From contig CAVYIK010000003.1 in the NCBI GenBank assembly GCA_963768625.1, forward strand, positions 518,715 through 582,714: a stretch of DNA of 64,000 bases, read 5' to 3'. Positions 22,636 to 54,850 of this stretch are shown here, in pieces. Each line of letters opens with the position of its first letter. Within the stretch, counting starts at the first letter, position 1. A model generated the notes under the pieces. The model saw only the letters and a program-made list of their open reading frames with translations. It made no database searches and was not told where the DNA came from. A program made the position numbers and the translations under genes. Source of the DNA: an uncultured bacterium (GTDB lineage: Bacteria > Patescibacteriota > Minisyncoccia > UBA6257 > 2-01-FULL-56-20).

Positions 22636-22711
22636 GTAGCGATAACCCAAACAGGCTTTGGAAGGAGCCCTTCTTAGTACTCCTTCCAAAGCCTGTTTGG
22701 GTTATCGCTAC
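22636..22711. repeat. conserved-loop hairpin family, member a (32-bp perfect stem, 12-nt loop CCCTTCTTAGTA)
   Basis: GTAGCGATAACCCAAACAGGCTTTGGAAGGAG / CTCCTTCCAAAGCCTGTTTGGGTTATCGCTAC read directly. It lies between convergent genes. Confidence 0.85.
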
Positions 22712-23451
22712 CACACCTCGTGGAGCTTGATGCCCTCCTTATCTATTGTGATATAACTGCTCGGGATATCGGTCCAGCAGCCAGGATTGTGATACTCGAC
22801 GCCATCCTGGGCGCGGACCGTGCATGCGTGATGGGTGTGGCCGCCGAAGACGACGTCCGCCGACCGCGTCCGCGCGTAGCCGATCATATCCTGATAGAAC
22901 GTCCTTGAGAGATAAACCCTTTTGCTCAAGCGTTTGACGAACCGGCTCACGTGCTGTTTTTCGGAATCAACCCGTTGGATCGCCCGGTATATCCGGCTGA
23001 AGAAATCGCTTACCATAGGTCTTTTAAGTATGAACGTGTCAAACGTGTCGCCGTGGATCGCGACGAAATGCTTGCCGCCAAAACGCCATTCGTAATCGTT
23101 CCGCACGGGGGCGCCAAAGAGCCCCTGCGCCGCTTCTTCAAGCGCCGCGTCATGGTTGCCCCGGAGCCAGATCACCTCAACGCCGTCTTTGGAGTTTGCA
23201 ATTTCGCGGATGAGCGAAAGGAATTTCCAATCCTCTTCCCGGAGGTCGGTGAGCCCGTAATCGTCAAAAATATCGCCAAGGAGAACGAGCCGATTAAAAA
23301 GGCACCGGTCGCCCCTGCAATACTTCTTTTCTATGAGGCTTGTGAGCTCTTTTACCCTGCTTACGCTCGAGCCGAGGTGAATGTCGGAGATGACGACCGT
23401 GTCAATCCCGGCATGCTTCTTTGGCATGATACTCCCTATTATATCAAACAA
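22708..23451 (-). CDS. calcineurin-like metallophosphoesterase (LpxH-like)
   Basis: VVISDIHLGS, GDIFD, GNHD, HGD and GHTH motifs in order. Confidence 0.8.
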   Translation of the reverse strand: MFDIIGSIMPKKHAGIDTVVISDIHLGSSVSRVKELTSLIEKKYCRGDRCLFNRLVLLGDIFDDYGLTDLREEDWKFLSLIREIANSKDGVEVIWLRGNHDAALEEAAQGLFGAPVRNDYEWRFGGKHFVAIHGDTFDTFILKRPMVSDFFSRIYRAIQRVDSEKQHVSRFVKRLSKRVYLSRTFYQDMIGYARTRSADVVFGGHTHHACTVRAQDGVEYHNPGCWTDIPSSYITIDKEGIKLHEVW

Positions 23452-24966
23452 ATCCCGGGAAGAAGTCGGTCTTCACCCGGCGCCCCGGAACGCCCATTTC
23501 CTCTAGGGTTTTATGAAAGGCGGCGGTCATTGCGTGCGTCCCGGAAATATAGAACGTCCGTTCGCGGTAATCGGGGACGGCTTGCGCAATCAGCCGCGCA
23601 TCAATGCGTCCCTTGTAGCCGCCGGGCGGCGGGGTCTCTTCCGCGCCCGTCACAGCGTAGACGGTCCGCAGCCCGATCTTCCTTGCCGCCTCGTCAAAGA
23701 CCTCGCGGTAGGCGATCTCGGCCGTCGTGCGGTTGGAATAGAGAAGGATGGCATCGCGCCGCTCGCCGCGGTCCGTGAGATATTTCACCATGCTGCGGAA
23801 CGGCGTGATGCCGATGCCGCCGGCGATGAAAACGAGTTTCGCGCGCTTGTCTCTGCGGGAGCGTGAAATCTCCGGCGAGCTGGCCGCCCACGATCTCATC
23901 GCCCGATTTCATCGCGAATAAATTTTTCTTGAAGCTGCTTGCGGGCGAATAGAATTTTACGCCGAGGTGAAGGTTTGGTTCGGTGGGGGACGAAGCGATG
24001 GTAAAGTAACGGCGGTTGCCGCGGTCATCGCTCTTTTTGTGCCCAAGGTCCACTCCATATATTGGCCGGGGCGGAAGCGCATAGGTTCCTCCGTTGCGAA
24101 CGCGAAATCATAGATGTCCGTGCCCACTTCCTTTTTGGATTTCAGTTTGAGCGCGTATTTTGCCTTCGGGCTTAAAGCATAAGAAAGAAGATTGCCCGCG
24201 AGGAGCGCAAGTTCCGGCGTGGAATAGATGGAGCCCACGTGGATCGCCGGCGCGAAGAGGAGGCCGACGAAAGCGCCGTACGCGATGCGGCCACTTCGCG
24301 TGGGCGGCGTCGTCAGGGGTTCGGTGAGCATGATGAACGCGAAGAAGAAGAGCGGCGCGTGAAGGAATGCTTTTTGGAGCGTGGTCAGGGGATCGGAGGC
24401 GGTATTCGTGAGCATGATCGTCACGAGGCCTACGGCGAAGAAACTTAATACAAGGTCAAATCGCTGTATCTTCCGCGTCACAAGGAGCCCGCCTACAAGC
24501 ACGAAAGCGAGCATTGGGAGGTTACCGCCGATCCACCAGCTTGCGGACTGGTTTATGGTGAGCGCCGTGAGCGCCACCGCGAAGGCCGCCGGGTTGAAAA
24601 GATGCTTTTTGTTGATAGCGAATATGTATTTGCAGGCCATCGCCCAGATCGCGGCCCAGATGAGGAAGGAAATACCCATCATATCCTGCGGAACCACGGG
24701 ACGTGATGATGAGCGCGAGGATGAGTGCGGTGATATAGACCGATTCCACGTTCGGTTGGGCGTTTGAAGGTTTTCGCAAAGAGCTGGTTCGTGATCCAAG
24801 AGACGGCGAGGAGTACGGCCGTCGAAAATACGATCGCAACGGGGCTATAGGGAAGGATGCCGAGCGCGCCGAAGATCGCCGCGATCGCAAGGAGCGCGAT
24901 CAAAAAATACAGCACGAGGCGGTACATGGTGATTCGGTTCAAGAGCCCGTCAATAAGGTTACGCAT
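23444..24966 (-). CDS. membrane-anchored FAD/NAD(P)-binding oxidoreductase (polytopic N-domain fused to an FNR-like module), at least three frameshifts
   Basis: Pieces 24679..24966, 23957..24799, 23694..24053 and 23444..23899 join into one protein. It has a TM domain with an HLFNPAAF motif, an RRYFTIASSP FAD-binding-like motif and LVFIAGGIGITPFRSM (NAD-binding GGxGxxP). Confidence 0.65.
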
Positions 24967-25714
24967 GGGTGTACTTTTCGAATCCGCGCGTCATCGTCGC
25001 GGTTTTGTTCTTATCTATCATATATCCTTCCACGCCATCAAGTCCTTCTATAAATTGGATCCCCCTTTGCCCCATCGCGAAGGCGCCCGTGGCAAGGCGG
25101 TCTGCCTCGTAGATATCAGGGCCCACGACGGTCAGGCTTACGATCTCGTTCGCCGCCTTGCCGGTCGTGGGATCGTAGATGTGTTCACCGCGGATATAGG
25201 TGCCGGAGGTGGCGACGCCTTCGCCGCTTAGAAACACCGCCTTCACATTCTCTTTTTCGTTCCACGGATTTTTTATGCCCACCGACCATTTCTTCCCGTC
25301 GGCGTTCTTGCCGTGCGTTTGTATGTCGCCGCCCGCGTCCACATAGAAATTTTCGAAGCCAAGCTTCTTGATGAGCTTCGCTGCGTTACAGATAGCCCAG
25401 CCCTTCACAAGCCCCGACGGATCATATTTCCCGTCAGGACGTTTGATATCAAAATAGCCGTCGGTGAGCCACTTCGTTTTTTCCGCGAGGATAAAGACCG
25501 TTTTCATGTCCTCGCTCCATGCATTTTCCGGAAGGCGTCCCTCGTTGATCGCGGTGATCTCGCTCGTCGTTTTGTACGTGCTGAATTTTTCATCAATGTA
25601 TTTGAAATAGTCGTAGGCCGCCTTGATGGCGCCCTCAAGCTTCGCCTGCGTGGCTGCGGGATCAACGATATCCACCGTGACCGGCATGCCCATCAGAATG
25701 CGCGTTTCTTTCAT
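24959..25714 (-). CDS. apbE: FAD:protein FMN transferase ApbE
   Basis: MGMPVTVDI ... GWAICNAAKL ... YVDAGGDI ... VATSGTYIRG, the ApbE family pattern. Confidence 0.85.
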   Translation of the reverse strand: MKETRILMGMPVTVDIVDPAATQAKLEGAIKAAYDYFKYIDEKFSTYKTTSEITAINEGRLPENAWSEDMKTVFILAEKTKWLTDGYFDIKRPDGKYDPSGLVKGWAICNAAKLIKKLGFENFYVDAGGDIQTHGKNADGKKWSVGIKNPWNEKENVKAVFLSGEGVATSGTYIRGEHIYDPTTGKAANEIVSLTVVGPDIYEADRLATGAFAMGQRGIQFIEGLDGVEGYMIDKNKTATMTRGFEKYTHA

Positions 25715-25725
25715 CGCCGCCCCAA

Positions 25726-26256: not shown

Positions 26257-26327
26257 ACTATGGATTATACGGATATACGAGGAAGTCGTTAAGAAAGTTT
26301 TAATGCCCCGAGGAGTACAATGGGGGC

Positions 26328-27458: not shown

Positions 27459-27482
27459 AGGGGATTTTGGGGCGAAAATCGC

Positions 27483-27512
27483 TTGGATTTTCGGGTCAAA
27501 TCGTGGTAGAAT
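27483..27512 (+). promoter_or_regulatory. putative sigma70-type promoter for gyrB
   Basis: TTGGAT-18 nt (ending TGG)-TAGAAT, 12 nt upstream of the gyrB ATG. Confidence 0.4.
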
Positions 27513-27524
27513 GAGGTATCCGAA

Positions 27525-29606: not shown

Positions 29607-29631
29607 CGCCGCTCAGATTTGGTGCTATACT
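29603..29631 (+). promoter_or_regulatory. putative promoter for secE-nusG-rpsR
   Basis: TTGACG-17 nt-TATACT with a TGc extended -10. It overlaps the gyrB stop codon. Confidence 0.5.
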
Positions 29632-29693
29632 CCCAATACCTCCGAATGCCGCGAGTATAGCGGTATTTTATTTATCGGAGTATAGTAATAACC

Positions 29694-29882: not shown

Positions 29883-29886
29883 TATC

Positions 29887-30459: not shown

Positions 30460-30465
30460 AACACC

Positions 30466-35875: not shown

Positions 35876-35899
35876 GTTTTAAACGTTAACATATCCGTT

Positions 35900-36179
35900 T
35901 GCGGTCGTTTTTGGATAAAATCCGAACTTATTTCAGCAGTATATCGTAGTCCGCTACCCCTTCAAATACCCCTTCAAATTGCCTGCGACGAATTGAAGGG
36001 GTAGCGGATCGAGATTGACCTGCAAACGTTGGCCTTTCCGAGCATCGCCCGACAAAATCCAAACTCCTACTTCACTCCGCTAGACCCCCTCCGAAATGGT
36101 GTGCTCAGCCCCTCAGCCGCTCGCTATCGCTCGGGCTTCGGGGCTTCGCGTATGGCGCGCCCAAATTCCTCCCCCACAA
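35900..36179. repeat. inverted repeat A, left copy (280 bp)
   Basis: Reverse complement of 39232..39500. Identical by eye except for one indel patch (33 nt here versus 22 nt in the right copy, around 36111-36143). Confidence 0.95.
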
Positions 36180-36465
36180 CCCCTCCTTTGGGGCGCGCTA
36201 AGAGGTGGTAACTCCACGTTTTGCGACCTTATTCCTGTCTGTAGGGTTAATTCCGCGTCTTTTAGTGCCTGACCTCATCAAGAAAACCGTTTCTTGTCCT
36301 TGCCCCAGCCATCCCATTGCGCGGGCAAAAGGCTATAAAACTCCCAATAAATCAGGCCATATCTATCTTCCTCACGAGTTATCCACAGGGGAGCACTTTA
36401 CAAGAATTGAATAGTAGTCTAGGATCATACTATCAGCTAACAAACTATCAACCAATATATAAAAC

Positions 36466-39189
36466 ATGGAAAAAGACCAAAAAATCGAGACCATAGATAT
36501 CACGCCAGATAAGAGCATCTACCATAAGATCGGGGAGGCAAACTATTCGATTTCCGATGCGCTCGCAGAGTTGGTAGATAACTCTATTGATGCCGCGAAC
36601 GAAGACGGCGTAGAGATATTCATAGTCTTAGATAAAAAAGATGGGAAGATCATTATTGAAGATAATGGGCAGGGAATGAACAAAGAGATAGCCTCGAAGA
36701 GTTTGGTGCTTGCCTATTCTAAGAAGCATGACGCGCTAGGCGAATTCGGCTTGGGTCTAAAGTCGGCCTGCACAAGTCTCGGAACAATTTTTACTATAAC
36801 GAGCACTCCAAAAGGATCAGAAGAAAAATATACCCTCGAATATAATAAAGAACAATTTCTACAATCGAGCGATTGGAGTAAATACCCCCTCACGATTGTA
36901 AAAGCCCCAAAGAATGAACACGGAACAAAAATAGAAATCAGCGATCTGAAAATAAAATTATACGACGCACTTGTTACACGCCTTAAGGACGATCTAGCAA
37001 AAAGATACGGCCCTTACATTGAGCACAACAACGTTGTCATTAAGGTCGGCCTTAAGAGAGAGACCGCCAAGCCGTGCGTGCCTAGCGAGAATAAGCTAGT
37101 CGCTGATACAAAGAAGGATTTTTCGTACATGCTTTCAAAGGGAAGCACTATTACGGGTTGGTACGGCCTTTTGGAAGTTGGATCGCAAAAGCAAAGCGGC
37201 TTCAATATGTTCCGAAGGGGACGTTTGATAAGAGCGTCTGAGAAACTTGGTTATAACTATCACCCGCATCTTATGAGCGTTACTGGCGAAATAAACTTAG
37301 ACTCCGTACCAGTAACCCACAACAAAAGAGAGTTCATCGTTGAATCGCCCGAATTCAAGGAATTTATTGAAAATTTCTGGGGCGATCAGACCGAAAAATA
37401 TTTAGGTTACAAGGCCAAGGGGAAGATTGACGAGATAACGAAAACCGCCAGAGATCGATCGAACCAAGAAAAAGCGGATAGTATGCCGACCGAGAAGAAG
37501 GAAACGATAAAGAATAACTTATTGAACGCCCTCAATCGCCTCGATGAGTTTAAGGAGTTAGCCTACCCAGATCTATACCAACCAAAGAAAAGATCCGTAA
37601 CTGGGAAAGAGGATTTGAAGGAAACCAGAGAAACCGATTTACGAGTGGCTAAAGAAGAGGAAGTTACCCCCACAAAGGAGGAGGAGGAAAGGGATCACAG
37701 GACGCCCAAAAAGACCCAGCCCAAGACGGCCAAATTTATAATGGTCGGGGGCAAGAAATTTAAGTTTGACTTCTTTCTAAAGAATCTAGGAAACGACGGC
37801 GTTGATAAGGAGACAATTATTAACGAAGACAATGTTATTGAAATATACATCAATACAGGGTTCAAGGGTTACAGCTTGACGAAAGATACGGATTTTTATT
37901 CCACCTTCCACATAGCGGAAGCTATTGCCGAACTCTACGTCAAAGAAGCTAAACAAAAAGTAGAGAGGGTTTTTGAGCTACGAAACAGCCTCATATATGA
38001 AGTCGCGTCTCTAATATACGAGGAGGAAGAATATAAGAGACTTGAGAAAACTGAGAGGGAATTAACTGCGGTAACCGAGAAGAAGAGGGAGCTTGAAGAA
38101 AAAGAGAATAAGAACAAGTCTATAGAAAACGATTATAAAAACATGAATTCACGTCAGACCATCCTACAAAAAATATGTCAGTTAAGGGGCACGAATGTCG
38201 TCGCTTACGTTACTAGCGACCGGCCGTTTATCAACGCTCCGATGGAGCCTAATGATATCAGGATATTCAAGGATCATTTAGATCAATTTACCGATAGAAA
38301 AAATATAGACTTGTTTCTTATTAGCAATGGTGGCACCTCAACAACCGCATGGGCTTTGATAAATCTCTTAAGAGAGTATACGGATAAGATCTCCGTTATT
38401 ATCCCTTATAAAGGATTTAGTTGCGCAACATCCGTAGCGATAGGTGCAGACGAAATTGTGATGTCCAAAATGGGCACTCTTGGCCCGATTGATCCCTCTG
38501 TATCTAACGCCTTTAATCCTTCTATAAACGGGCAGCTAGTTCCTATTTCTGTAGAGGACGTATCTTCCTATAATCAGCTTGCGAGAAAGATTTTCGGAAT
38601 AAAGGATCAGAAGCAAATAGTCAGTGTGTTCGAAAAGCTCTCTACGGATATCAAGCCATTAGCATTGGGTAATGCCTATAGGCATTATATGAAGGCTCGC
38701 GACGATGCTCAGAAACTTCTTTCTTTACATACTAAGGGTTGGCTAAAACGATTCAAGATAAAAAAGATCACAAAGACACTGGTGGAAAAGTTATATTTTC
38801 ACGGACATCATATCAATCGGAATGAAGCTAAGGACATTGGCTTAAATGTGATAGAGCCGAGTGCTGAGATGGAAACATTAATGTGGAATCTTTATAAGGA
38901 GTATGAATCTGATATGCAATTTAAGGTTCCTTACAAGGATGAACCGACGGCCGGAAGAGATATACCGCTAACCTACATAGAAAGCGTCGATAAGAGTGAT
39001 AAGAGAATTATCAAACAAAAAATTACGCAGATTAATTTTGTTGGTTTGGGCGTTCCTTTCTTTACCACATTTAACAACGCGCCAGCATTCTTAGTGAACG
39101 GTCAGTTCAGCCCGATTAGAAGCGAGGGAGCCGTTATAACATTAAATAGTCAGCCTTACGATAAAGTAGAATCTGTTTTATGGGCTTAA
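36466..39189 (+). CDS. 907-aa fusion: N-terminal GHKL (HATPase_c_3/MORC-like) ATPase, charged coiled-coil linker, C-terminal ClpP-fold SDH/S49-like serine protease
   Basis: Bergerat motifs: ELVDNSIDA (aa 35-43), DNGQGM (66-71) and GEFGLGLKS (92-100). The middle is KE-rich and coiled-coil (aa 330-555). The C-terminus reads DLFLISNGG...ISVIIPYKGFSCATSVAIGADEIVM...LGPIDPS. From memory this aligns to the serine dehydrogenase proteinase family pattern (HTPGG...AMSGGT...ADEIVM...LGPVDP). AT-rich codon usage. Confidence 0.85.
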   Translation: MEKDQKIETIDITPDKSIYHKIGEANYSISDALAELVDNSIDAANEDGVEIFIVLDKKDGKIIIEDNGQGMNKEIASKSLVLAYSKKHDALGEFGLGLKSACTSLGTIFTITSTPKGSEEKYTLEYNKEQFLQSSDWSKYPLTIVKAPKNEHGTKIEISDLKIKLYDALVTRLKDDLAKRYGPYIEHNNVVIKVGLKRETAKPCVPSENKLVADTKKDFSYMLSKGSTITGWYGLLEVGSQKQSGFNMFRRGRLIRASEKLGYNYHPHLMSVTGEINLDSVPVTHNKREFIVESPEFKEFIENFWGDQTEKYLGYKAKGKIDEITKTARDRSNQEKADSMPTEKKETIKNNLLNALNRLDEFKELAYPDLYQPKKRSVTGKEDLKETRETDLRVAKEEEVTPTKEEEERDHRTPKKTQPKTAKFIMVGGKKFKFDFFLKNLGNDGVDKETIINEDNVIEIYINTGFKGYSLTKDTDFYSTFHIAEAIAELYVKEAKQKVERVFELRNSLIYEVASLIYEEEEYKRLEKTERELTAVTEKKRELEEKENKNKSIENDYKNMNSRQTILQKICQLRGTNVVAYVTSDRPFINAPMEPNDIRIFKDHLDQFTDRKNIDLFLISNGGTSTTAWALINLLREYTDKISVIIPYKGFSCATSVAIGADEIVMSKMGTLGPIDPSVSNAFNPSINGQLVPISVEDVSSYNQLARKIFGIKDQKQIVSVFEKLSTDIKPLALGNAYRHYMKARDDAQKLLSLHTKGWLKRFKIKKITKTLVEKLYFHGHHINRNEAKDIGLNVIEPSAEMETLMWNLYKEYESDMQFKVPYKDEPTAGRDIPLTYIESVDKSDKRIIKQKITQINFVGLGVPFFTTFNNAPAFLVNGQFSPIRSEGAVITLNSQPYDKVESVLWA

Positions 39190-39204
39190 TTCTAAAAATT
39201 TATT

Positions 39205-39233
39205 TCACGGCCATGCGGCCGTGAGCTATTTTT
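39205..39233 (+). terminator. rho-independent terminator of the 907-aa gene
   Basis: CACGGCC-ATGC-GGCCGTG followed by AGCTATTTTT, 16 nt after the stop codon. Confidence 0.6.
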
Positions 39234-39500
39234 GTGGGGGAGGAATTTGGGCGCGCCATACGCGAAGCCCCGAAGCCAGCAGGCTGAGGGGCTGAGCACA
39301 CCATTTCGGAGGGGGTCTAGCGGAGTGAAGTAGGAGTTTGGATTTTGTCGGGCGATGCTCGGAAAGGCCAACGTTTGCAGGTCAATCTCGATCCGCTACC
39401 CCTTCAATTCGTCGCAGGCAATTTGAAGGGGTATTTGAAGGGGTAGCGGACTACGATATACTGCTGAAATAAGTTCGGATTTTATCCAAAAACGACCGCA
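39232..39500. repeat. inverted repeat A, right copy (269 bp)
   Basis: Reverse complement of 35900..36179 (see the left copy). Confidence 0.95.
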
Positions 39501-39588
39501 GACTAATTCGATTTTTATTTTCCACCGCGAGCGGCCACGCTTCGCGTGGCATGAAATCTAGCTTTCCCTCGCCGAGCCGGAAGTTCGA
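39501..39588. repeat. inverted repeat B, left copy (88 bp): an inverted duplicate of the recombinase gene 3' end
   Basis: The reverse complement is 88/88 identical to 41143..41230 (checked base by base). Confidence 0.95.
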
Positions 39589-39645
39589 CGCCGTAGACGG
39601 CGGTTCGCTGTTCGCTCACACCAATCTTTTCGCTTTTTACCAAAG

Positions 39646-39654
39646 TGGTATACT
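39646..39654 (+). promoter_or_regulatory. possible extended -10 promoter element upstream of the recombinase gene
   Basis: TGGTATACT (TGn + TATACT). It is flanked by a direct repeat CACCAATCTT at about 39618 and about 39662. No convincing -35. Confidence 0.3.
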
Positions 39655-39786
39655 AGAGGCGCACCAATCTTGAAGCCCGAAATTTTTGTATAACACGGGT
39701 TACACACCCAAACGGGCGATTCTGTTCAATTTTGCTTTCGGGCAAGGTTGGTGCAACAGGGTCGCCCTTTTGAGTTTTTGAGAACT

Positions 39787-41394
39787 ATGGATACTCAACC
39801 CAAAAAGTTTTTTCTCTACGCCCGCAAGTCCACCGACACGGAGGAACGTCAGGTGCGGAGTATTGACGACCAGATCGCGGAGCTTCACGAGTTGGCGGCG
39901 AGAGAGGGCATAGAAATATTAAGAACGTATACCGAGAAGCAGACGGCGAAAGCTCCGGGTCGTCCCATATTCAACGAGATGCTTGCGGACATAGAGAAGG
40001 GCCTTGCCGATGGCATCTTGGCGTGGCATCCCGACAGGTTAGCACGTAACTCCGTGGACGGCGGCAAGATTATATGGCTTCTCGACATCGGCAAGCTCCA
40101 CCATCTCAAATTCTCAACTTTTTGGTTTGAGAACACGCCGCAGGGTAAGTTCATGCTACAGATAGCGTTTGGCCAATCGAAATACTACGTTGATAATCTC
40201 TCCGAAAATATCCGGCGAGGGGTGCGGCAAAAATTGAAGAATGGTTTATGGCCTAACATGGCTCCGCTCGGCTACATGAATAGTGCGGCCAAATCCATCG
40301 TAGTTGATCCGCCAAAGGCGTTGCTCATTAAAAAGTCATTCGAATTGTACGCCTCCGGCAGATACTCCCTCGCCTTGTTGCGAAATACTGTAAACGGGCT
40401 TGGCCTTGTGGGACGCCGGAGCCAAACGCTATCCATATCGAACTATCAATATATTCTCAAAAACCCGTTCTATTGCGGCCTCATCCGCTATAACGGCGAG
40501 ATATACGAGGGCAGGCACGAACCCATCATATCCAAGAAACTTTTTGACGAGGTGCAAAGTGTCATGTCGCGCAAGAGCAAGCCGAGCAAAAAAATCGCCA
40601 AGTATTTCGTTTTCCGCGGCCTCATCCATTGCGCCGAGTGCGGTTGCCTCATCACCGCCGAGATACAGAAAGGCCACACCTACTACCGATGCACCAAACG
40701 GAAAACGGCTTGCTCGCAGAAATATATTAGGGAAGAATCCTTGCGCGATCTTTTCAAGCAAGAGATACAAAAAGTTTCTTTGCCCTCCGATTGGGCGGCA
40801 ACAATGGTTGCCGAGCTGGAAAACGAGCGAGCGACGAACGCCCAATCTGCGGACTCCTTTGCTCAAAAGCTGAAAGATAAAATGGTAGTCCTTGATACGA
40901 AGCTATCCCGCCTGATGGACGGCTATCTTGCGGACGCAGTCGCGCTCGAAGAATATCAGATAGCCAAGTCAAAAATGGTATCAGAAAAACAGCTTCTCAA
41001 GGACAAGATATCGGCTTTTGAGCGGAAAGGCGTTTCATGGTTCGAACCTGCCATACAGTTCATAAAAGAAGCGGAATCGGCCTCCACTTTGGCAAAAAGC
41101 GATGATAACAAATCCATACGGGAATTCGCCGAAAAGATTGGTTCGAACTTCCGGCTCGGCGAGGGAAAGCTAGATTTCATGCCACGCGAAGCGTGGCCGC
41201 TCGCGGTGGAAAATAAAAATCGAATTAGTCTGCGGAGGCGGAAGGATTCGAACCTTCGAAGGGATTTCTCCCTTAACATCTTAGCAGGATGCTGCCTTAA
41301 GCCACTCGGCCACGCCTCCGTGTGCCCTAAGCTTATACGACGGGGCGCGGGCTTGCAAGTGATTTGCGCGGAAGGAAAATTAAAGGTAAACTGA
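39787..41394 (+). CDS. large serine recombinase; the ORF 3' end runs through repeat B and antisense across tRNA-Ser
   Basis: FFLYARKSTDTEERQ (catalytic Ser15 at 39829-31) and DRLARN. Recombinase domain, zinc ribbon CAECGC...YYRCTKRKTAC, then a coiled-coil. ATG at 39787 is preferred over the TTG at 39748. Confidence 0.9.
   Translation: MDTQPKKFFLYARKSTDTEERQVRSIDDQIAELHELAAREGIEILRTYTEKQTAKAPGRPIFNEMLADIEKGLADGILAWHPDRLARNSVDGGKIIWLLDIGKLHHLKFSTFWFENTPQGKFMLQIAFGQSKYYVDNLSENIRRGVRQKLKNGLWPNMAPLGYMNSAAKSIVVDPPKALLIKKSFELYASGRYSLALLRNTVNGLGLVGRRSQTLSISNYQYILKNPFYCGLIRYNGEIYEGRHEPIISKKLFDEVQSVMSRKSKPSKKIAKYFVFRGLIHCAECGCLITAEIQKGHTYYRCTKRKTACSQKYIREESLRDLFKQEIQKVSLPSDWAATMVAELENERATNAQSADSFAQKLKDKMVVLDTKLSRLMDGYLADAVALEEYQIAKSKMVSEKQLLKDKISAFERKGVSWFEPAIQFIKEAESASTLAKSDDNKSIREFAEKIGSNFRLGEGKLDFMPREAWPLAVENKNRISLRRRKDSNLRRDFSLNILAGCCLKPLGHASVCPKLIRRGAGLQVICAEGKLKVN
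41143..41230. repeat. inverted repeat B, right copy (inside the recombinase gene 3' end)
   Basis: See 39501..39588. Confidence 0.95.
41233..41319 (-). tRNA. tRNA-Ser(GCT)
   Basis: Hand-folded on the minus strand. Acceptor GGAGGCG/CGCCTCC, anticodon loop CTGCTAA, long variable arm, T-arm GAAGGTTCGAATCCTTC. No encoded CCA. Confidence 0.9.
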
Positions 41395-43605: not shown

Positions 43606-43935
43606 ATGCGATTTTTTCGTTCCGAGCGGGTGAGTAAATTGATACGCGAAGAACTTGCGAAGATCATCTTGCGCGAGCTTGAATTCCCCGATGCGCTCGT
43701 TACGATCACGTCGGTGGAAGTGGACAAGAAGCTTGAGCATGCGAAGGTGAACATGAGCGTCATTCCTTCGTCCGAGGATGAGGCGGCGCTTGCGGTGCTC
43801 GTCAAAGCCACCCCGCATCTCCAGTATCTTTTGATGAAAAAGATCAACATCAAGCCGATGCCGCGCATTGCGTTCGCGATAGACCGCGGGCCGGAGAACG
43901 CGGCGAGCGTTGAAAAAGTACTGCTCACAAAGTAG
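43606..43935 (+). CDS. rbfA: ribosome-binding factor A
   Basis: RSERVSKLIREELAKII...VTITSVEVDKKLEHAKV, immediately downstream of infB. Confidence 0.85.
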   Translation: MRFFRSERVSKLIREELAKIILRELEFPDALVTITSVEVDKKLEHAKVNMSVIPSSEDEAALAVLVKATPHLQYLLMKKINIKPMPRIAFAIDRGPENAASVEKVLLTK

Positions 43936-43946
43936 AATAGGAGCAC

Positions 43947-44018
43947 GGCCTGGTCGCCAAGAGGTAAGGCAAGGGTCTGCAAAACCCTTACACGCGGGTT
44001 CGATTCCCGCCCAGGCCT
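43947..44018 (+). tRNA. tRNA-Cys(GCA)
   Basis: Acceptor GGCCTGG/CCAGGCC, anticodon loop CTGCAAA, T-arm GCGGGTTCGATTCCCGC. Confidence 0.9.
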
Positions 44019-44026
44019 CACGGATA

Positions 44027-44096
44027 CAGCAGGAAGAAAGTGGCTTCGGACAGAGTACTCGGAAGGGCTCTGTCCGAAGCCACTTTCTTCCTGCTG
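44027..44096. repeat. conserved-loop hairpin family, member b (29-bp perfect stem, loop TACTCGGAAGGG)
   Basis: CAGCAGGAAGAAAGTGGCTTCGGACAGAG / CTCTGTCCGAAGCCACTTTCTTCCTGCTG. It starts 8 nt after tRNA-Cys. Confidence 0.85.
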
Positions 44097-44334
44097 CCTT
44101 GGTGATGTTTGAGCGGGAATCGAACGAGGAAGGGGGTCGGGGAAACCCTAGGTTTCCCCGTGTAGGAGGGTCGCGTTCTTATGCGACAGTTCGGCACCGA
44201 GGATGCCGAAAGTGCAGGCCGATTTTATCGGCCGAGCAGTGAGATTCCCGCCCACTCCAACCACTTGCATTTTCCAGCAATTCCGATAGCATCCTAGCTA
44301 GTAGCAGGTCATTGATTCAGAAAGGATAAATGCC

Positions 44335-44919
44335 ATGCCGGGAATCACCATGCTCACAGCTTTGGAGATCTTTAGTAATCCGCGGGACCTCGTAGTCTCA
44401 ACGGGCCGGGTAGAGGGCAAGTATGCGATCGCAATCAGCCGCGGCCCTGGCCACAATTTCAAGATCTTGATCGATTCGCAGCCCTTTGCCGAAACGCCGG
44501 AAGCTGCCACGAAAGCTATCCACGAGATCCTTGGATCAATCCGGGAAGCTGCCACGAAACAACTGGGGGATCGAGAGAGCATTCCATCTCAGTACCTCAA
44601 CCCAAGTGGTCGAAGACTCCATCAGTCTAAGGTTTTGGATGCAGATCTCATCGACTGGATTCTGAATGAACTGCGCGAGGGCAGAGTCGCGCGCACGTAT
44701 CAAAAAGAATCCTCGGCTCCCGAGGCGAATGAGCCAAGAGAGCTGAAGGAAGAGATTTTGGATGAGGTTTGCTCCCACAAGTGGCTTAAGCCGTCCACGA
44801 TCCAGAAAAGGCTGGGCCGCCGCTTCAAGGTTATGGATATAAGAGCCGCGATCAACGAGCTTATCAATGAAAAGAAGATTGTTCTGACCAGCACGAGGAA
44901 GCTTGCGGCGCCTCGCTAA
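44335..44919 (+). CDS. hypothetical protein (possible C-terminal winged-helix)
   Basis: 194-aa ORF followed by a clear terminator. No recognisable catalytic motif. Confidence 0.5.
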   Translation: MPGITMLTALEIFSNPRDLVVSTGRVEGKYAIAISRGPGHNFKILIDSQPFAETPEAATKAIHEILGSIREAATKQLGDRESIPSQYLNPSGRRLHQSKVLDADLIDWILNELREGRVARTYQKESSAPEANEPRELKEEILDEVCSHKWLKPSTIQKRLGRRFKVMDIRAAINELINEKKIVLTSTRKLAAPR

Positions 44920-44937
44920 TGGGGTATCGCTAACGGT

Positions 44938-44972
44938 CCCATCCACGCACAATCGTGGGTGGGCGTTTTTTA
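44938..44972 (+). terminator. rho-independent terminator
   Basis: CCCATCCACG-CACAAT-CGTGGGTGGG followed by CGTTTTTT. Confidence 0.7.
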
Positions 44973-45020
44973 TTTGCGCCTGGAGTTAAATCGGAGATAA
45001 AAAAAGGACCAGATGAACAT

Positions 45021-45299
45021 TCAACTGGTCTTTCTCGATTTTCTTCGGGGGACAGGGCCAGGATTGCGAGCACGATCTTTTAATGTCGCAAGGAGCCTTT
45101 GGACGACAATGCGTTGGGGGGCTTGAGCCTCCGCGACCTGCAGCAGCTCTTTCTCATTGAGCGGAAGGTTGGGATTGTACCATCGCTCATATTCTTCGGG
45201 TGTCGCATTGAGGCCGCGGCAGTAGTTGCAGAAATGAGTGCCCCGTTTCTTGGAAAAGGTGACCCAGTTGCCGTTGCAAAATGGGCACATAGTTATCAC
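45021..45299 (-). CDS. small zinc-ribbon protein
   Basis: 92 aa. CPFCNG...CNYC is a two-CxxC pattern. Confidence 0.5.
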   Translation of the reverse strand: MITMCPFCNGNWVTFSKKRGTHFCNYCRGLNATPEEYERWYNPNLPLNEKELLQVAEAQAPQRIVVQRLLATLKDRARNPGPVPRRKSRKTS

Positions 45300-45389
45300 C
45301 TCTCTTTCTCACTGGAGCATAAACCACCGGAGACCGGAAGTAAACGTGCGCCTTGAACGGGGACGCTGCTTGTTTTACACTGAGCGTGC

Positions 45390-49627: not shown

Positions 49628-51854
49628 TCTTTGACTTTATCACTTTTTTTCGCTCTGGGCTTCGGCGGGTTTTTCCGCCAATGCTTAAGCGCATCCGTAA
49701 GCTCCGCTTCCGATTCAGGTTTTTTGTTCATCACGAACGTGCAGTCGGGGTAGCGCGTGCAGGCATAGAACGGCCGGCCGCGCCCGCGGGATTTCTTGAG
49801 GACGATGTCGCCTGTTTTGCAGATTCGGGGCACTTGAAGCCGGTCTTGTCCCAGATCTTCAGGACGCCTTTGCAAGTCGGGTAATCCGTGCAGCCAAGGA
49901 AAAAGCCGAAGCGGCCGCGGCGCACCTTCATCGGCTTTCCGCAGATGGGGCAGCGCTCGTCCTTGGTTTTTTCTTCAAGCTCTTTTATCTTCGCCGCTTC
50001 CTCGGGCATCGGGAGCGTGACCTTCACGCCCGGTTCGGGGCAGGCAAGGAATTTCCCCATGCGCCCGAATTTGATGATCATGGGTTTCCCGCAGTGCGGG
50101 CACGGGGTGGTCGAAACCTCTACCTGTTTGACGACGGTCGCTTCTTTTTCGTCCAGTTCCTTTTTGAATGGGCCGTAGAATTCGCGGCAGACATCGGTCC
50201 ACTTCATCTTGCCCTCCGCGATCTCATCGAACTCCTCTTCAATATGCGAAGTGAATTTTATGTCGACACCTCCGGGAAGTTCTCTACGAGGAGGTCGTTC
50301 ACGAGGACGCCGATCTCCGTCGGGTGGTATTTCTTCTCGAGCTTTTCCACGTAACCGCGATCCTGGATGGTGGAGAGCGTCGGCGCATACGTGGAAGGCC
50401 GGCCGACGCCTTCTGCTTCGAGCGCCTTTACGAGCGTCGCATCCGTATAGCGCGGCGGCGGTTCGGTGAAATGCTGCACGGGCGCGAGATCTTTGAGCGT
50501 GAGCTTCGCTCTCCTTCTCGAGCTTCGGCAGCTGTCCCTCGACTTCGCTATTCCCGTTCCCATTTTCGTCCTTGCCTTCCGTATAGACGCGGATGAATCC
50601 GTCGAATTTGACCGTCTGGCCGTTCGCCCGGAACATTTCTTTCTTTTGCGTGTCGGCCTCGATGTCCACCGCGGTCTGTTCAAGAATGGCCTCCTTCATT
50701 TGCGAGGCGATCGTGCGTTTCCAGATGAGATCATAAAGGCGCTGGTCGTTCCGTTCCTTAAAGCCCAACGTTTTGCCGGAGGTCGCGTGGAGGTTGCGTC
50801 GGGCGGATGGCTTCGTGCGCTTCCTGCGCGCCTTTGCTCTTCGTGGCGTAGCGCCGCGGCTCGGGGAGCGCGTATTCCTTCCCGAACTCGGTACCGATGA
50901 CTTCGCGCGCGGCCGCGAGCGCGGCCTCCGCAAGATTGACGCTATCCGTGCTCATATAGGTGATGTGACCGTTCTCGTAGAGCTTCTGCGCGATCATCAT
51001 GGTTTGCTTTGCGGAAAAGCCGAGCTTGCGCGCCGCTTCCTGCTGGAGCGTGGAGGTCGTGAACGGGAGCGGCCGGATTCCGCCGGACCTCTTTTACAGT
51101 GATGTCCGCAATCCGGTAATGCGCTCCCGCGAGCCCCTCTATAATAGAGTCGCGCCGCGCGCTCGTCCTTGATGCCCATCTTCCCGAGCGCCTTGCCGGA
51201 AACGGAATGTAAGAACGCCGGGAATGAGCGACGCGTCTTTCCCTTGCCGCGGCAGAAAAGGTTGCCTCAATTGTCCAATACTCTTCTTTATTGAACGCCT
51301 GGATCTCGCGTTCGCGTTCTACGACGAGCCGCACGGCTACGCTCTGCACGCGGCCGGCGGAAAGGCCATAGCGCACCTTCCGCCAGAGGAAGGGCGAGAA
51401 TCCGTAACCTACGAGGCGGTCCAGCACGCGCCGCGCCTGCTGGGCATCCACCAAGTTGATGTCGATCTCGCGGGGATTTTCTAACGCTTCTTTGATGGCG
51501 GACTCCGTGATCTCATGGAAGGCGATCCGTTCTATCTTTTTCCTTTTTCTTTTCGAAGGCCGAGCGCGGTGACCAGGTGCCACGCGATCGCTTCGCCTTC
51601 GCGGTCTTCATCAGTCGCGAGAATGACCTTCGCTGCCTTGCTGCAAGCGTTTTCAGGTTCGCTACAATTGGCTTCGCTTTCGCGGGGATCATGTATTGCG
51701 GCGCGAAATCGTGCTCGACATCAATGCCCATCTTGCTTTTTGGAAGGTCGCGAATATGGCCGTAGGAGGATTCGACGGTAAAATTCTTGCCGACGAACTT
51801 GCTGATGGTTTTGGCTTTGGTGGGCGATTCAACAATGACGAGATCCATGTTCAT
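49624..51854 (-). CDS. topA: DNA topoisomerase I, at least five frameshifts
   Basis: TOPRIM N-terminus [16 protein letters not shown]...SYGHIRDL. Core pieces lie in ORFs 50942..51583 and 49731..50933. C-terminal zinc ribbons ([25 protein letters not shown]). Confidence 0.9.
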
Positions 51855-51863
51855 GATATGTTT

Positions 51864-52918
51864 TTATATTGTATACCCTCCGTCTTTTTCTTTGATGCAA
51901 TCCCTCACCAAAAGGAAGGAAAGAGTACGGTTTACGATTCGGGGTTCAAGTTTAGCGGCCGCGGCGATTTTGTCAACATCCGCCGGCCTTCCAATCTCCT
52001 GCATGCGCTTCTAGAATCAGCTTTTCTTCTTCCGACGCGGCGGCAGCGAGCAATGCGATTTTTTTCTCGCCCGTGACGCCGTACGCCTCGAAAATCTCTT
52101 CTGGCGCCGTAACGAGCTCCGCCCCTTGACGGATTAGCTGGTGCGCGCCCGCGAAGCTGCGGTTGCGTGATCGGTCCGGGCACCACAAAGACGTCGCGGT
52201 TTTGTTCAAGGGCGAGCCGCGCGGTCACGAGCGCCCCCGATCCCACGGGCGCTTCAACGATGAGCGTCGCCGCGCGCAATCCGCTTATGATCCGATTCCG
52301 TTCGAGGAAACGGTCCGGATAGGGCGGCGCGCCCAGCGGATATTCGGAGATGATGGCGCCGCCGCTCTCTAGTATCCTTTTCGCCAGCCGTCCATTCTCC
52401 CGTGGGTAGACATCGTCCAATCCGCCGGCAAGCACCGCGACGGTCGTGCCCCGCGCATCAAGGCATCCTTCGTGCGCCGCCGCGTCGATGCCGAACGCAA
52501 GCCCGCTCACGATAGGGAATCCCGCTTGCGCGAGGTTATGGGCAAATCGGTGTGCGATACTCTTCCCTTCGGGCGTCGCGCGGCGGGTGCCGACGATCGC
52601 GCACGGCGCTGTGTCGCCTCGGGGAAATGTTCCCAAGATATAGATCCCGAACGGGCGGTCTTCTATCTCCGCGAGGAGCGGGGGATATCCTTTCTCGCCC
52701 GCGAAGATAAGGCGGACAGATCTTTCTCCCAGCTTTTTCCATTCCGCGCCGGCGTCGGGCATTGCAGCTCTCGCCGCGCCGCCGCCGAGGAGCGTGCCAT
52801 CCCGGAGTTTTTTGTACGCGCGTTCAAAACCCCCGTACTTTTTGAGGAGCTTTACAAGCTTCCTCCGGTCTCCCGTCACGGCTACGGCAAGGGCGTTATA
52901 ATAGAGCGCTTCATTCAT
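51864..52918 (-). CDS. dprA: DNA processing protein DprA, two frameshifts near the 3' end
   Basis: VGTRRATPEGKSIA...IVSGLAFGIDAAAHEG...VVPGPI. The hand-read C-terminal winged helix is ...DVDKIAAAAKLEPRIVNRTLSFLLVRDCIKEKDGGYTI. Confidence 0.85.
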
Positions 52919-52984
52919 CTTTTATGAGCGTGCCCGCAAAGAGGGGAAAAGTAAAGCATGCGTTAATATGTTTTTAATGGTAAA

Positions 52985-53524
52985 ATGGAAAAGGAAATGA
53001 AAAATGACTTCGGGAAACGTTGGTGGACGAGCATGGGCATCGTGTTGGGGGCGATCGTTATTGCCTCGGTTGCTCTGTACTTTTTGTCGAACGACCTTAC
53101 TGCGCAGGCGGACAAGATTGTGAACGACCAGGCAATGCTCGCGGCGCAGACGGCAACAGTGAATGCCCTCGCACATCTCAAAGCTGACGCTCCGCAAGCG
53201 GCAGTATACGCCGCGGCAATGGGGAAATTGCTTCCGACGCACGATAACCTCCTTGGTTTTCCGCAGTGGCTCGTCGCCTTGGGCCAGAGCCATCACGTTG
53301 CAGTGTCATCCGCATTCCAGGGGCAATCGGCCATAGCTACCGCCGCCACGCCGGGCATAGACGGTTTTTCCATGACCGCGACCGGTGCTTCGACCGACCT
53401 CGTAGCGTTCCTCCGCGATCTTGAAGGCAGCTCCGTCTTTTTACTGTCCATCGATTCGGTCAATCTTACGAACAACGGCTCCGCTTATCAGCTCAACGCG
53501 CAAGGAAAATTATTTTCCCGCTGA
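52985..53524 (+). CDS. membrane-anchored hypothetical protein (PilO-like topology)
   Basis: N-terminal TM helix, then a helical segment and an alpha/beta C-terminus. Resemblance to PilO is by layout only. Confidence 0.4.
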   Translation: MEKEMKNDFGKRWWTSMGIVLGAIVIASVALYFLSNDLTAQADKIVNDQAMLAAQTATVNALAHLKADAPQAAVYAAAMGKLLPTHDNLLGFPQWLVALGQSHHVAVSSAFQGQSAIATAATPGIDGFSMTATGASTDLVAFLRDLEGSSVFLLSIDSVNLTNNGSAYQLNAQGKLFSR

Positions 53525-53545
53525 TCTATTCGTTCCCGAACACCC

Positions 53546-53767
53546 ATGAAAAATATTTTGAGAAAATATTCGGAATCGGCCCTCTTCGCCCTCGCATTCG
53601 TCCTCTTGGGCATTATCATCGTGTATTTCGCTTGGGGGATCGGCGAGGTGGTCGGACAAGTCGGCCGCGGACTGAATGGCGCCGGGCCAAGCACGCCGAG
53701 CGCCGGCTTCAATTTTAAAACCGCCAAGACGTTGGACCTTCGAGGGCTTGTCAACCAAACGCCGTAG
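53546..53767 (+). CDS. small membrane protein
   Basis: 73 aa with one TM helix (ALFALAFVLLGIIIVYFAWGI). Confidence 0.35.
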   Translation: MKNILRKYSESALFALAFVLLGIIIVYFAWGIGEVVGQVGRGLNGAGPSTPSAGFNFKTAKTLDLRGLVNQTP

Positions 53768-53788
53768 GCCTATTATGAACCTACCGCT

Positions 53789-53860
53789 GCGTCCTTAGCT
53801 CAGTGGTAGAGCGTCACATTGACATTGTGAAGGCCGGAGGTCCGATCCCTCCAGGACGCA
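53789..53860 (+). tRNA. tRNA-Val(GAC)
   Basis: Acceptor GCGTCCT/AGGACGC, anticodon loop TTGACAT, T-arm GGAGGTCCGATCCCTCC. Confidence 0.9.
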
Positions 53861-53870
53861 CTGGGAAAGA

Positions 53871-53942
53871 GCGCATGTAGTTCAGTGGTAGAACGCGTTC
53901 CTGATAAGAACGAGGTCGTAGGTTCGATTCCTACCATGCGCA
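53871..53942 (+). tRNA. tRNA-Ile(GAT)
   Basis: Acceptor GCGCATG/CATGCGC, anticodon loop CTGATAA, T-arm GTAGGTTCGATTCCTAC. Confidence 0.9.
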
Positions 53943-53951
53943 CCGCCAGAA

Positions 53952-54003
53952 CAAAAAGGGTTTGGAAAGAGTACTCGGAAGGGCTCTTCCCGAACCCTTT
54001 TTG
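53952..54003. repeat. conserved-loop hairpin family, member c (20-bp stem with one A/C mismatch and one G/T pair, loop TACTCGGAAGGG)
   Basis: CAAAAAGGGTTTGGAAAGAG / CTCTTCCCGAACCCTTTTTG. It starts 9 nt after tRNA-Ile. Confidence 0.75.
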
Positions 54004-54064
54004 CTTTTCTTGATGGAATCGAACGAGGCTTGTAGACAGCGCTTACATGTGCCTCGCCGCACTA

Positions 54065-54094
54065 TTGACTAAATGGCGTCATATATGGTATAAT
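54065..54094 (+). promoter_or_regulatory. near-consensus sigma70-type promoter
   Basis: TTGACT-18 nt (ending TGG)-TATAAT. An AGAGG Shine-Dalgarno lies at 54101-05 and the ATG at 54115. Confidence 0.55.
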
Positions 54095-54114
54095 GCATCC
54101 AGAGGTAATTGACA

Positions 54115-54672
54115 ATGAACCTACGAAGGAAATTGCGGAGACTATTCCGCAGGGGGGAGGAAAAGACAATGAGATCAAGGCCCGGCTTCGAGAAAGTAGA
54201 ACTTCGAGACGCGATTGGGTCCGTTATAGCGGTCATCGTCGTTGCTCCATTCTTTCTCGCTTTTACGGGGATTGCGGGGGCAAAGAAAGCATGGGAGAAG
54301 CAAATGCTCTGCCTTGCAACACGAAAGAGCACGCCAGAGGAATTGCAACTTCTCCGAACTCTGCGGCGGAGCCTCGAGCGCTTTCTGAACAGGAGTAAAT
54401 ACCTTCAGCATCCGACCGAGTTCAATCGTGAAGAGTTCCTCAAACAGATGCCACAATCAAAACTTGGCATTCCAAGAGGCTACGGCTTTACGTTCGCGGA
54501 ACGAATGACCAATGCAATGGAAGAAGCGACGGAAAAAGCGAAGGAAGCTCGGATCCGTAAGGCAGAGATGCAGCGGGCGCTCCAGCAATGCTTTTCAGCC
54601 GGGATCTCTCGCTGGAAAATCCAGCAATTTCTAAATCGTTACGGTGTTCGCCTTTCGAACATCGAGGATTGA
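54115..54672 (+). CDS. hypothetical protein with one TM helix
   Basis: The ORF has its own promoter and RBS. No recognisable motif. Confidence 0.5.
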   Translation: MNLRRKLRRLFRRGEEKTMRSRPGFEKVELRDAIGSVIAVIVVAPFFLAFTGIAGAKKAWEKQMLCLATRKSTPEELQLLRTLRRSLERFLNRSKYLQHPTEFNREEFLKQMPQSKLGIPRGYGFTFAERMTNAMEEATEKAKEARIRKAEMQRALQQCFSAGISRWKIQQFLNRYGVRLSNIED

Positions 54673-54774
54673 CTACGCGTATTTCTTCGGGCCCGTAAGT
54701 AGCGCAAGCGAACACGGGCCCCCTTTATTTTCTGTGCACAGGATAGGATTCGAACAATGGTTAATCTAGGCTCG

Positions 54775-54850
54775 TGCGCAGGCATAACGCAGGGGCTTGG
54801 AAGGAGCCCTTCTGAGTACTCCTTCCAAGCCCCTGCGTTATGCCTGCGCA
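54775..54850. repeat. conserved-loop hairpin family, member d (32-bp perfect stem, loop CCCTTCTGAGTA)
   Basis: TGCGCAGGCATAACGCAGGGGCTTGGAAGGAG / CTCCTTCCAAGCCCCTGCGTTATGCCTGCGCA. Confidence 0.85.

Follow-up and report, generated by a model that had tools for sequence, protein, structure and literature searches.

Repetitive extragenic palindromic sequences (REPs) are imperfect palindromes of 20-40 nucleotides (nt) that are tagged at one end by a conserved GTAG or CGTC, their copies numbering from tens to hundreds (PMC3733652, PMC3337134). In E. coli and Pseudomonas, REPs and REPINs are short extragenic palindromes dispersed in both orientations; they usually lie after genes, their presence differs between related genomes, and REPs are able to act as terminators or as stabilizers of mRNA. 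Here, we focus on a family of hairpins which resembles them in these respects, found in a 64-kb stretch of DNA from an uncultured bacterium of the Minisyncoccia (contig CAVYIK010000003.1, positions 518,715 to 582,714), the whole of which is called the window below. Unlike REPs, these hairpins span about 76 bp and have near-perfect arms, variable ends, a conserved asymmetric tip and a preference for the 3' ends of tRNA genes. The reading that we favor, if tentatively, is that of a clade-restricted palindrome of 76 bp, gained and lost between genomes, which would form a terminator-like hairpin in either direction, with arms kept by correction at the level of DNA and a tip read by a factor.

Bidirectional intrinsic terminators also mark the ends of transcription units, including those between convergent genes, and consist of an A-run, a stem richer in G+C and a T-run. 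However, ordinary ones are not homologous to one another, whereas the hairpins described here share an ancestor, arms of 26-32 bp and an invariant tip of 16 nt. In Neisseria, pairs of DNA uptake sequences and Correia elements place conserved short words in terminator-like inverted repeats 3' of genes and have a second role at the level of DNA. The present family likewise combines a conserved word with a terminator-like repeat 3' of genes and is specific to one lineage, but in Neisseria the stem is conserved and the loop free, while in these hairpins it is the tip that is kept and the lower stem that can vary; their density is also far lower than that of uptake sequences. Small selfish hairpins and palindromic repeats are also known to invade the intergenic regions of mitochondrial genomes (PMC2800124, PMC2670323). 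These differ in being organellar, unrelated in sequence and much denser, with no described link to a duplication of tRNA 3' ends. In position and dispersal, the family resembles REP/REPIN and terminator-forming repeats. We file it with the dispersed extragenic palindromes serving as terminators because those defining features of REPs, of miniature transposable elements with inverted repeats (MITEs) and of integron attC sites that were tested are lacking, and the likeness to tRNA islands is limited to a duplicated tRNA end. Its unusual traits are the concentration of conservation in an asymmetric tip and the strong preference for tRNA 3' ends.

Hairpins at the ends of genes

Four members of the family, M1 to M4, lie in the window, two of them against tRNA genes.

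22636-22711, minus strand: hairpin M1, with perfect arms of 32 bp and the tip TACTAAGAAGGG on the minus strand; between convergent genes, overlapping the stop codon of the minus-strand metallophosphatase gene (22708-23451)
43947-44019, plus strand: tRNA-Cys(GCA), with its own promoter-like site at 43910-43938; M2 abuts its 3' end
44027-44096, plus strand: hairpin M2, with perfect arms of 29 bp; 3' of tRNA-Cys, its first base 7 nt past the gene
53871-53944, plus strand: tRNA-Ile(GAU), with tRNA-Val (53789-53861) upstream; M3 abuts its 3' end
53952-54003, plus strand: hairpin M3, partly decayed, with arms of 20 bp and two mismatches; 3' of tRNA-Ile, its first base 7 nt past the gene
54775-54850, minus strand: hairpin M4, with perfect arms of 32 bp and its tip on the minus strand; between two plus-strand genes, with the terminator of the open reading frame (ORF) 54109-54672 on one side and an LCAT-like gene (54898-57201) on the other

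The original prediction, made from the letters of the window, had proposed four homologous hairpins at these coordinates. Our reading of the sequence and an inverted-repeat search, which returns the same arm lengths and positions, both bear this out, and the upper stems it quoted, the 8-bp palindrome GAGTACTC and the gene contexts (convergent at 22.6 kb, co-directional at 54.8 kb, and two hairpins 7-9 nt after tRNA genes) are correct as well. The shared tip GAGTACTNNGAAGGGCTC occurs four times in the window. When up to three mismatches are allowed, the pattern GAGTACTCNGAAGGGCTC gives 4 matches against 0.10 expected, a count that none of 100 shuffles of the window reaches. Predicted RNA fold energies of the four hairpins lie between -29 and -75 kcal/mol, and the z-scores extend from -4.6 for M3 to -14.8, those of M1, M2 and M4 falling between -11 and -15. 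Beyond its perfect arms, M2 has an outer extension in the form of a weaker inverted repeat (43998-44125; 58-nt arms, 86% complementary) that reaches the T-loop of the tRNA, and M3 carries the A5 and T5 tracts of the family consensus.

A covariance model (R1) built from nine copies and run over 227 kb, comprising the window and related loci, found 12 distinct copies at 73-93 bits, with lower scores on the reverse strands, in four related Minisyncoccia genomes. The eight copies outside the window are placed as follows.

L001a: between convergent tRNA-Pro and tRNA-Phe
L001b: directly 3' of the stop codon of a coding gene
L003: 3' of tRNA-Ile
L005: 3' of tRNA-Glu
L006: 3' of tRNA-Arg
L009: 3' of tRNA-Pro
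L019: abutting tRNA-Ser(GCU)
L031: 3' of tRNA-Ile

All 12 copies are intergenic, 11 are positioned at the 3' end of a transcription unit, and nine abut the 3' end of a tRNA gene (binomial p < 1e-6 if at most 10% of gene ends are tRNA). Copies that were found by pattern alone give the same picture, with 5/5 sitting 0-25 nt past a tRNA gene (p < 1e-5 at a generous prior of 10%). The proposal of a dispersed, lineage-specific element therefore stands: the outcome that had been named as counting against it, no further copies and no positional bias genome-wide, did not arise, and none of the 12 copies lies outside related Minisyncoccia in the collections scanned.

The pattern GGANNGAGTACTNNGAAGGGCTC, scanned in one genome per species across 185,579 species, identified true hairpins in only two Minisyncoccia genomes, JBEKML010000001.1 (SPRUCE_393) and OY970175.1 (MFD03726). 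A scan of metagenomes returned only SPRUCE peat contigs identical to the known ones and three non-hairpin chance matches in unrelated sequence. Four pattern matches in Amycolatopsis were rejected as chance matches, as they are high in G+C, are not palindromic, have flanks near-identical among the four genomes and look coding; the other high-G+C matches were not palindromic and were dismissed likewise. An origin from phages or plasmids was also considered and was rejected on the scans of viral contigs, in which the tip motif gave non-hairpin chance matches only and the motif of the module described below gave none, together with BLASTN of hairpin plus module against phage and plasmid collections, which found no match. 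Nor does it match a known RNA family. Only tRNAs of the window and loci pass the gathering threshold of Rfam release 15, neither hairpin nor module matching; in E-value mode, the hairpins reach only generic microRNA-precursor models far below threshold, and the module nothing credible. The hairpin element is thus confined to a small clade of Minisyncoccia, within the candidate phyla radiation (CPR)/Patescibacteria. The window itself belongs there by its IF-2 and other proteins, and an identical IF-2 is encoded on a contig of 588 kb. Genomes of this group are tiny and thought to be poor in repeats. A clade-specific palindrome at tRNA 3' ends indicates that CPR genomes still host small selfish or domesticated DNA.

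Related genomes differ in which sites are occupied. The gene order infB-rbfA-tRNA-Cys-tRNA-Leu is kept in five relatives, and no hairpin follows tRNA-Cys in L017, L019, L021, L023 or L028. The distance from tRNA-Cys to tRNA-Leu is 9-554 nt in the relatives versus 1370 nt in the window, where the two genes are separated by an insertion.

44020-45389, no strand: window-specific insertion of 1.37 kb between tRNA-Cys and tRNA-Leu(UAA), containing M2, the module, ORFs 44335-44919 (plus strand) and 45021-45299 (minus strand) and an ordinary terminator at 44938-44963

Similarly, the hairpin at tRNA-Ile is present in the window, L003 and L031 and absent in L029 and L030, and the SPRUCE and MFD genomes have hairpins at tRNAs that are unoccupied in the window. 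Because the same tRNA gene is occupied in some genomes and empty in others, the hairpin is a dispersed repeat that is gained and lost, not one inherited with each gene. The genomes which host it share only 72-78% identity of their IF-2 proteins, and the element moves or is copied between sites within the time separating them.

The interval between tRNA-Cys, tRNA-Leu(UAA) and tRNA-Leu(CAA), that is, 44020-45389 of the window and its counterparts in L017, L019, L021, L023 and L028, is also a hot spot, in which small genes and islands vary. In L017, it is occupied by a 7.7-kb island encoding a large serine recombinase and an Mrr-type nuclease, in L023 by a STAS-domain gene and in other genomes by other small ORFs. 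The palindromic element also marks the flanks of tRNA genes as hot spots for the insertion of small genes.

Arms, tip and terminator-like layout

The perfect runs of the arms measure 32, 32, 32, 32, 31, 30, 29, 29 and 26 bp. They cluster at 29-32 bp, therefore indicating a discrete unit of about 76 bp in which two arms of up to 32 bp surround an asymmetric centre of 12 bp. As the original prediction held, these stems are longer and more perfect than those of ordinary terminators, the short ones in use elsewhere in the window having stems of 5-12 bp and loops of 3-8 nt. Conservation drops outward from the centre, and the termini are the most variable part.

In an alignment of the 12 copies, 97.4% of the cells are paired and two-sided changes occur at 24 of the 32 pairs (79 cells), with about six G.U cells. 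Not one of 500 shuffles reaches the observed covariation, and registers slid against each other are 42-58% paired. Changes in the arms include transversions, from A-U to C-G and from A-U to U-A, without a wobble intermediate, and the rare mismatches are A/C or U/C rather than wobbles. It is known that DNA quasi-palindromes undergo arm-to-arm correction by template switching, which creates and maintains perfect hairpins (PMC8794818, PMC7202029). Such DNA-level correction would explain the near-perfect arms better than compensation at the level of RNA, and because the pattern matches it, the covariation is real but no evidence of RNA-level selection. Of the earlier argument that covariation implies selection on structure, the first half stands and the second does not follow, considering the many two-sided changes and the scarcity of G.U. 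This is also a caution for RNA screens based on covariation, as 24 of 32 covarying pairs most likely report the correction of a DNA palindrome here, not selection on RNA.

The tip behaves differently. Sixteen of its 18 columns are invariant, whereas of the 52 remaining columns of the stem 2 are (Fisher p = 9e-12), so that the tip is under sequence constraint. In the predicted RNA, the nominal 12-nt loop folds on into a U.G pair, an A/G mismatch, a C-G pair, a U-A pair and a 4-nt tip, the two variable bases of the loop being the first two of this predicted tip. In nine of the 12 copies, the tip reads in the sense of the upstream gene; in L019, L031 and M4, it reads in the opposite sense. At the tRNA-Ile site, even the orientation in M3 and L003 differs from that in L031. 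The earlier observation that loop orientation varies among members thus extends to the larger set without a tie to the direction of transcription, and a fixed loop orientation as the sign of an RNA-level signal was discarded on account of these three copies. The palindromic nature of the arms means that the tip might be flipped when copies convert one another or when the arms recombine.

These data bear on whether the hairpin is a signal of the host. It could be a lineage-specific terminator or a hairpin for 3' processing or stabilization, encoded by the host, under selection at the level of RNA, inherited vertically with occasional duplication and bearing a putative protein site in its tip. 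Copies at the 3' ends of tRNA or coding genes, a very stable predicted fold with a structured tip that varies only in its terminal tetraloop, and the nine tips in the sense of the upstream gene would all be consistent with this. Moreover, perfect duplexes of 26-32 bp are long enough to serve as a substrate of RNase III. However, we consider this account unlikely. Three of the 12 copies, L031 at the same tRNA-Ile site among them, would expose the complement of the tip in the transcript, and genomes whose IF-2 proteins are 72-78% identical do not have the same sites occupied. The near absence of G.U pairs and the transversions among the apparent compensations argue against a stepwise evolution of the RNA. 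In addition, short terminators of the ordinary kind serve elsewhere in the window, and M4 lies behind a gene that is already terminated.

An alternative at the level of DNA is a REP/REPIN-like element moved by RAYT, a Y1/HUH enzyme, or the end of an IS200/IS605-type element, either of which would be recognized as single-stranded DNA during replication. A hairpin of DNA could present the conserved tip in single-stranded form, the palindromes are extragenic and dispersed in both orientations, and M1 happens to begin with GTAG. The original prediction had likewise proposed a REP/PATE-like element, and the dispersal it implied is confirmed by 12 extragenic copies of mixed orientation. The defining features of REPs that were tested, though, are lacking: no GTAG is conserved at the end and the termini are variable, the 5' ends differing in 12/12 copies and a GTAG start occurring in M1 only. 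In these hairpins the conserved part is the tip, while the 5' end is variable and has neither a GTAG nor a CGTC tag (PMC3733652). They also measure 76 bp rather than 20-40 bp and occur at a low density of 4 per 64 kb. A Pfam scan of about 50 ORFs of the window and loci revealed no Y1_Tnp and no other transposase domain, the sole recombinase being a large serine recombinase, and the search for a Y1/RAYT gene that had been suggested found none in the window. We therefore hold this alternative to be very unlikely. Two further classes were compared. MITEs are not matched, as the termini are the least conserved part and solo hairpins have no flanking direct repeats. Integron attC sites differ in that the basal ends of the stems vary here (GCATAAC, GCAGAAC, GCGATAAC and others) and depart from the conserved R''/R' core sites (RYYYAAC / GTTRRRY); in addition, these stems have no bulges and their centre is the conserved part, whereas attC has extrahelical bases and a variable centre.

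We return to the terminator-like palindrome that we favor. The family consensus is CAAAAAGGG...CCCTTTTTG, or, with the tip in place, CAAAAAGGGTTTGGAAAGAG-tip-CTCTTTCCAAACCCTTTTTG. The 10 nt past the 14-bp upper stem contain 4-9 T (mean 6.4; the genome frequency of T is 0.22), and the 5' arm is correspondingly A-rich. An A-rich 5' arm and a U-rich 3' arm would amount to the layout of a bidirectional intrinsic terminator, one which can be read on either strand because the A-rich tract mirrors the U-rich one. This design fits the positions of the hairpins after tRNA genes, after coding genes and between convergent genes. In the full hairpin, the U-tract is itself paired. On this reading, the transcript would carry a two-way intrinsic terminator or 3'-end hairpin, in which the 14-bp upper stem and a small structured tip are followed by a U-rich tract. 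The arms would be kept perfect by template switching or gene conversion within the quasi-palindrome. The 16 invariant bases of the tip may be read by a putative sequence-specific factor, most likely one that copies or places the element.

Several points weigh against this reading. The U-tracts of M2 and M4 are poor, with only 4-5 T in the 10 nt, and the gene upstream of M4 already has a canonical terminator of its own, so M4 at least is not needed as one. A role in termination leaves the invariance of the tip unaccounted for. Beside none of the copies is there a gene for a transposase, an integrase or a HUH/Y1 enzyme, and the solo hairpins show no target-site duplication. The search with R1 covered only the 227 kb, from about seven genomes, and some empty sites could reflect loss from an ancestral state rather than gain.

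A structured module between hairpin and duplicated tRNA ends

At three loci, the hairpin is followed by a second element, a structured module of about 140 nt: in the window (44113-44260 with the copied tRNA end), in L003 (6483-6615) and in L005 (3673-3823). The features that concern it in the window are the following.

44113-44251, plus strand: structured module of about 140 nt, 3' of M2; 161.7 bits with covariance model R2
44243-44260, plus strand: decayed direct copy of the last 18 nt of tRNA-Cys (44002-44019), matching at 14/18 nt, at the right end of the module
54015-54028, plus strand: module remnant GGAATCGAACGAGG, corresponding to the initial 14 nt of the module and lying 11 nt past M3; the remainder is missing
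54065-54732, plus strand: one-gene cassette between M3 and M4, with a promoter-like site (54065-54094), ORF 54109-54672 and a hairpin followed by a T-run (about 54689-54732)
54746-54755, plus strand: second motif resembling an antisense T-loop, GGATTCGAAC, 19 nt before M4; the motif and its flanks align to the spacer after the hairpin in L031

The module is predicted to be closed by a helix, GGGAAUC/GAUUCCC, and to contain three or four hairpins, four in the window copy, with compensatory changes at 10 of 46 pairs. Model R2 detects the three full modules at 102-162 bits and no other full copy in 229 kb. Reverse-complemented, the first 11 nt of the module (44115-44125, GGGAATCGAAC) match the T-loop region of tRNA-Cys (43998-44008) exactly. 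At the other end of the module, the 3' end of the upstream tRNA is duplicated, with 18/18 nt exact in L003 and 15 nt exact in L005. The modules of the window and L005 share 87.6% identity over a BLAST segment of 105 nt, though they lie at tRNA-Cys and tRNA-Glu, respectively. At M3 and L031, only the first 10-14 nt of the module are kept. The arrangement suggests that hairpin and module form an insertion unit aimed at tRNA ends, by a mechanism which is conjectural. For the terminator-like palindrome, this would mean that some copies, at least, came in with a larger unit of which they formed the left part, next to the module of about 140 nt, and that insertion of this unit at a tRNA gene's end duplicates the last 18 nt of the gene.

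Two described systems come close to such a unit. In Pseudomonas putida, IS110-family elements together with the Ssr9 small-RNA module are inserted at REP sequences (PMC12288879). There, too, a structured small-RNA module with a mobility of its own accompanies a palindromic repeat, and solo modules occur without a transposase gene. However, no IS110 (DEDD) transposase was found here, ISPpu9 has neither the antisense T-loop nor the duplicated tRNA end, and the likeness drawn is one of organization. The tRNA islands of tyrosine integrases share the direct duplication of a tRNA segment, from T-loop to 3' end, beyond the insert. In contrast to these islands, the unit here has only about 215 bp (6402-6615 in L003) and contains no ORF and no integrase. 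Direct repeats of a tRNA end were found only with the hairpin-plus-module units, and the neighboring ORFs encode no integrase domain; an integrase or transposase beside the copies in L003 and L005 was sought and none was found. Moreover, one subfamily of units lies at both tRNA-Cys and tRNA-Glu, which a classical attP with a fixed tRNA end would not allow.

A different account makes the whole unit, consisting of hairpin, spacer, the 11-nt antisense T-loop and a structured core of about 125 nt, a new small non-autonomous mobile element which targets tRNA T-loops; the palindrome would be its terminal hairpin and termination a side effect. The antisense T-loop would pair with its target, either RNA or single-stranded DNA, insertion would duplicate 18 nt, and solo hairpins would be decayed or truncated copies. 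In agreement with this, each of the three full units has a different tRNA gene beside it, that for Cys in the window, for Glu in L005 and for Ile in L003, and two of them are closely similar in spite of their different tRNAs. The duplication begins at GATTCC, inside the stretch that is complementary to the first 11 nt of the unit, and in L003 and L005 it stops 2 nt beyond the acceptor stem. In L003, the sequence past the right-hand copy resembles the native flank of tRNA-Ile in L030. The short module remnants at M3 and L031 are what decayed copies would retain, the module hairpins have compensatory changes, and a precedent exists in the small-RNA module that spreads beside palindromic repeats via an IS110 transposase (PMC12288879). 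On the other hand, there are only three full units in 229 kb, about one per genome sampled, and no clear remnant of a module exists at M1 and L001b, which lie at coding genes, or at the tRNAs of L006, L009 and L019. No enzyme gene is adjacent, and the neighboring ORF 44335-44919 has homologs in ordinary housekeeping contexts. A target duplication of 18 bp is unusual among known bacterial transposases, and the right-hand copy of the window retains only 14/18 nt. On balance, we find it doubtful that this account is right. Its most specific form, in which hairpin and module make up a nucleic-acid-guided mobile unit that homes to the universally conserved T-loop of tRNA genes, with the 76-bp hairpin and its invariant tip as the end recognized by an enzyme, strikes us as quite improbable. 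If it is true that the unit homes to the T-loop by base pairing, the principle of targeting would be new and its landing site universal and conserved.

Other identities were considered for the module and its neighbors. The sequence GGAAUCGAAC after M2 resembles the 5' part of transfer-messenger RNA (tmRNA), but ARAGORN and Rfam are negative, the two ends form no acceptor stem and the 3' end varies with the neighboring tRNA. A convergent tRNA or tRNA-like gene on the minus strand was rejected as well, since no T-arm can be drawn and ARAGORN finds none. A protein encoded by the element was dismissed, ORFs 44335-44919 and 54109-54672 being unrelated to each other and devoid of Pfam domains. Homologs of the former lie in housekeeping contexts for which no link to tRNA genes is annotated; the latter has no Pfam match. 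The cassette that contains it is absent from the orthologous locus L031, and because the motif at 54746-54755 aligns to the spacer after the hairpin in L031, the cassette is placed between two antisense T-loop motifs. The neighboring ORFs are unrelated cargo.

A circularly permuted relative of the module core was observed immediately upstream of tRNA genes in L005 (3436-3521) and L021 (21510-21600). It shares GGGGGTC, GTGTAGGA and the hairpin GTCGCG..CGCGAC with the module, but their order is another one. Permutation of this kind is typical of small ribozymes. Known ribozyme models give no match to the permuted core, and its place upstream of tRNAs hints at an RNA motif with an activity of its own, for example in the processing or cleavage of tRNA precursors.

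Other repeats and genes of the window and related loci

Nested perfect inverted repeats occupy 35897-41394 of the window. Arms of 222 bp (35897-36118 / 39282-39503) and of 46 bp flank a gene for a MORC-like ATPase/SDH-protease (36466-39189), and arms of 93 bp (39496-39588 / 41143-41235), which include the 3' end of tRNA-Ser(GCU), flank the large serine recombinase gene (39748-41394). The region has the look of an integrated island whose segments can invert, or else of an assembly artifact from a population that carries the inversion. Topoisomerase I is encoded by two ORFs of 400 and 213 amino acids at 49731-51583 of the window, both with Topoisom_bac, whereas relatives have a single gene of 729-764 amino acids; a frameshift, a pseudogene or a sequencing error could account for the split.

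Other large hairpins were also seen. One at 19288-19358 of the window, between the LemA and M48 peptidase genes, has 31-nt arms (87% complementary) and a 9-nt loop, and its sequence is unrelated to that of M1-M4. In L021, 3' of tRNA-Val (21344-21496), another large inverted repeat with A/T-rich arms of 27 bp (GAAAGGTTTTTTCTGTTCTTTTGAGAG) about 100 nt apart encloses further hairpins. Finally, L031 contains a second family of hairpins of the same design (5375-5451 and 9880-9950), with a conserved 20-nt tip, CGAATTCGTCTTCGTACGAG, on different perfect stems. Its tip again contains GTAC in a short palindrome, and one of the copies is found at the position equivalent to that of M4, just upstream of the LCAT-like gene.

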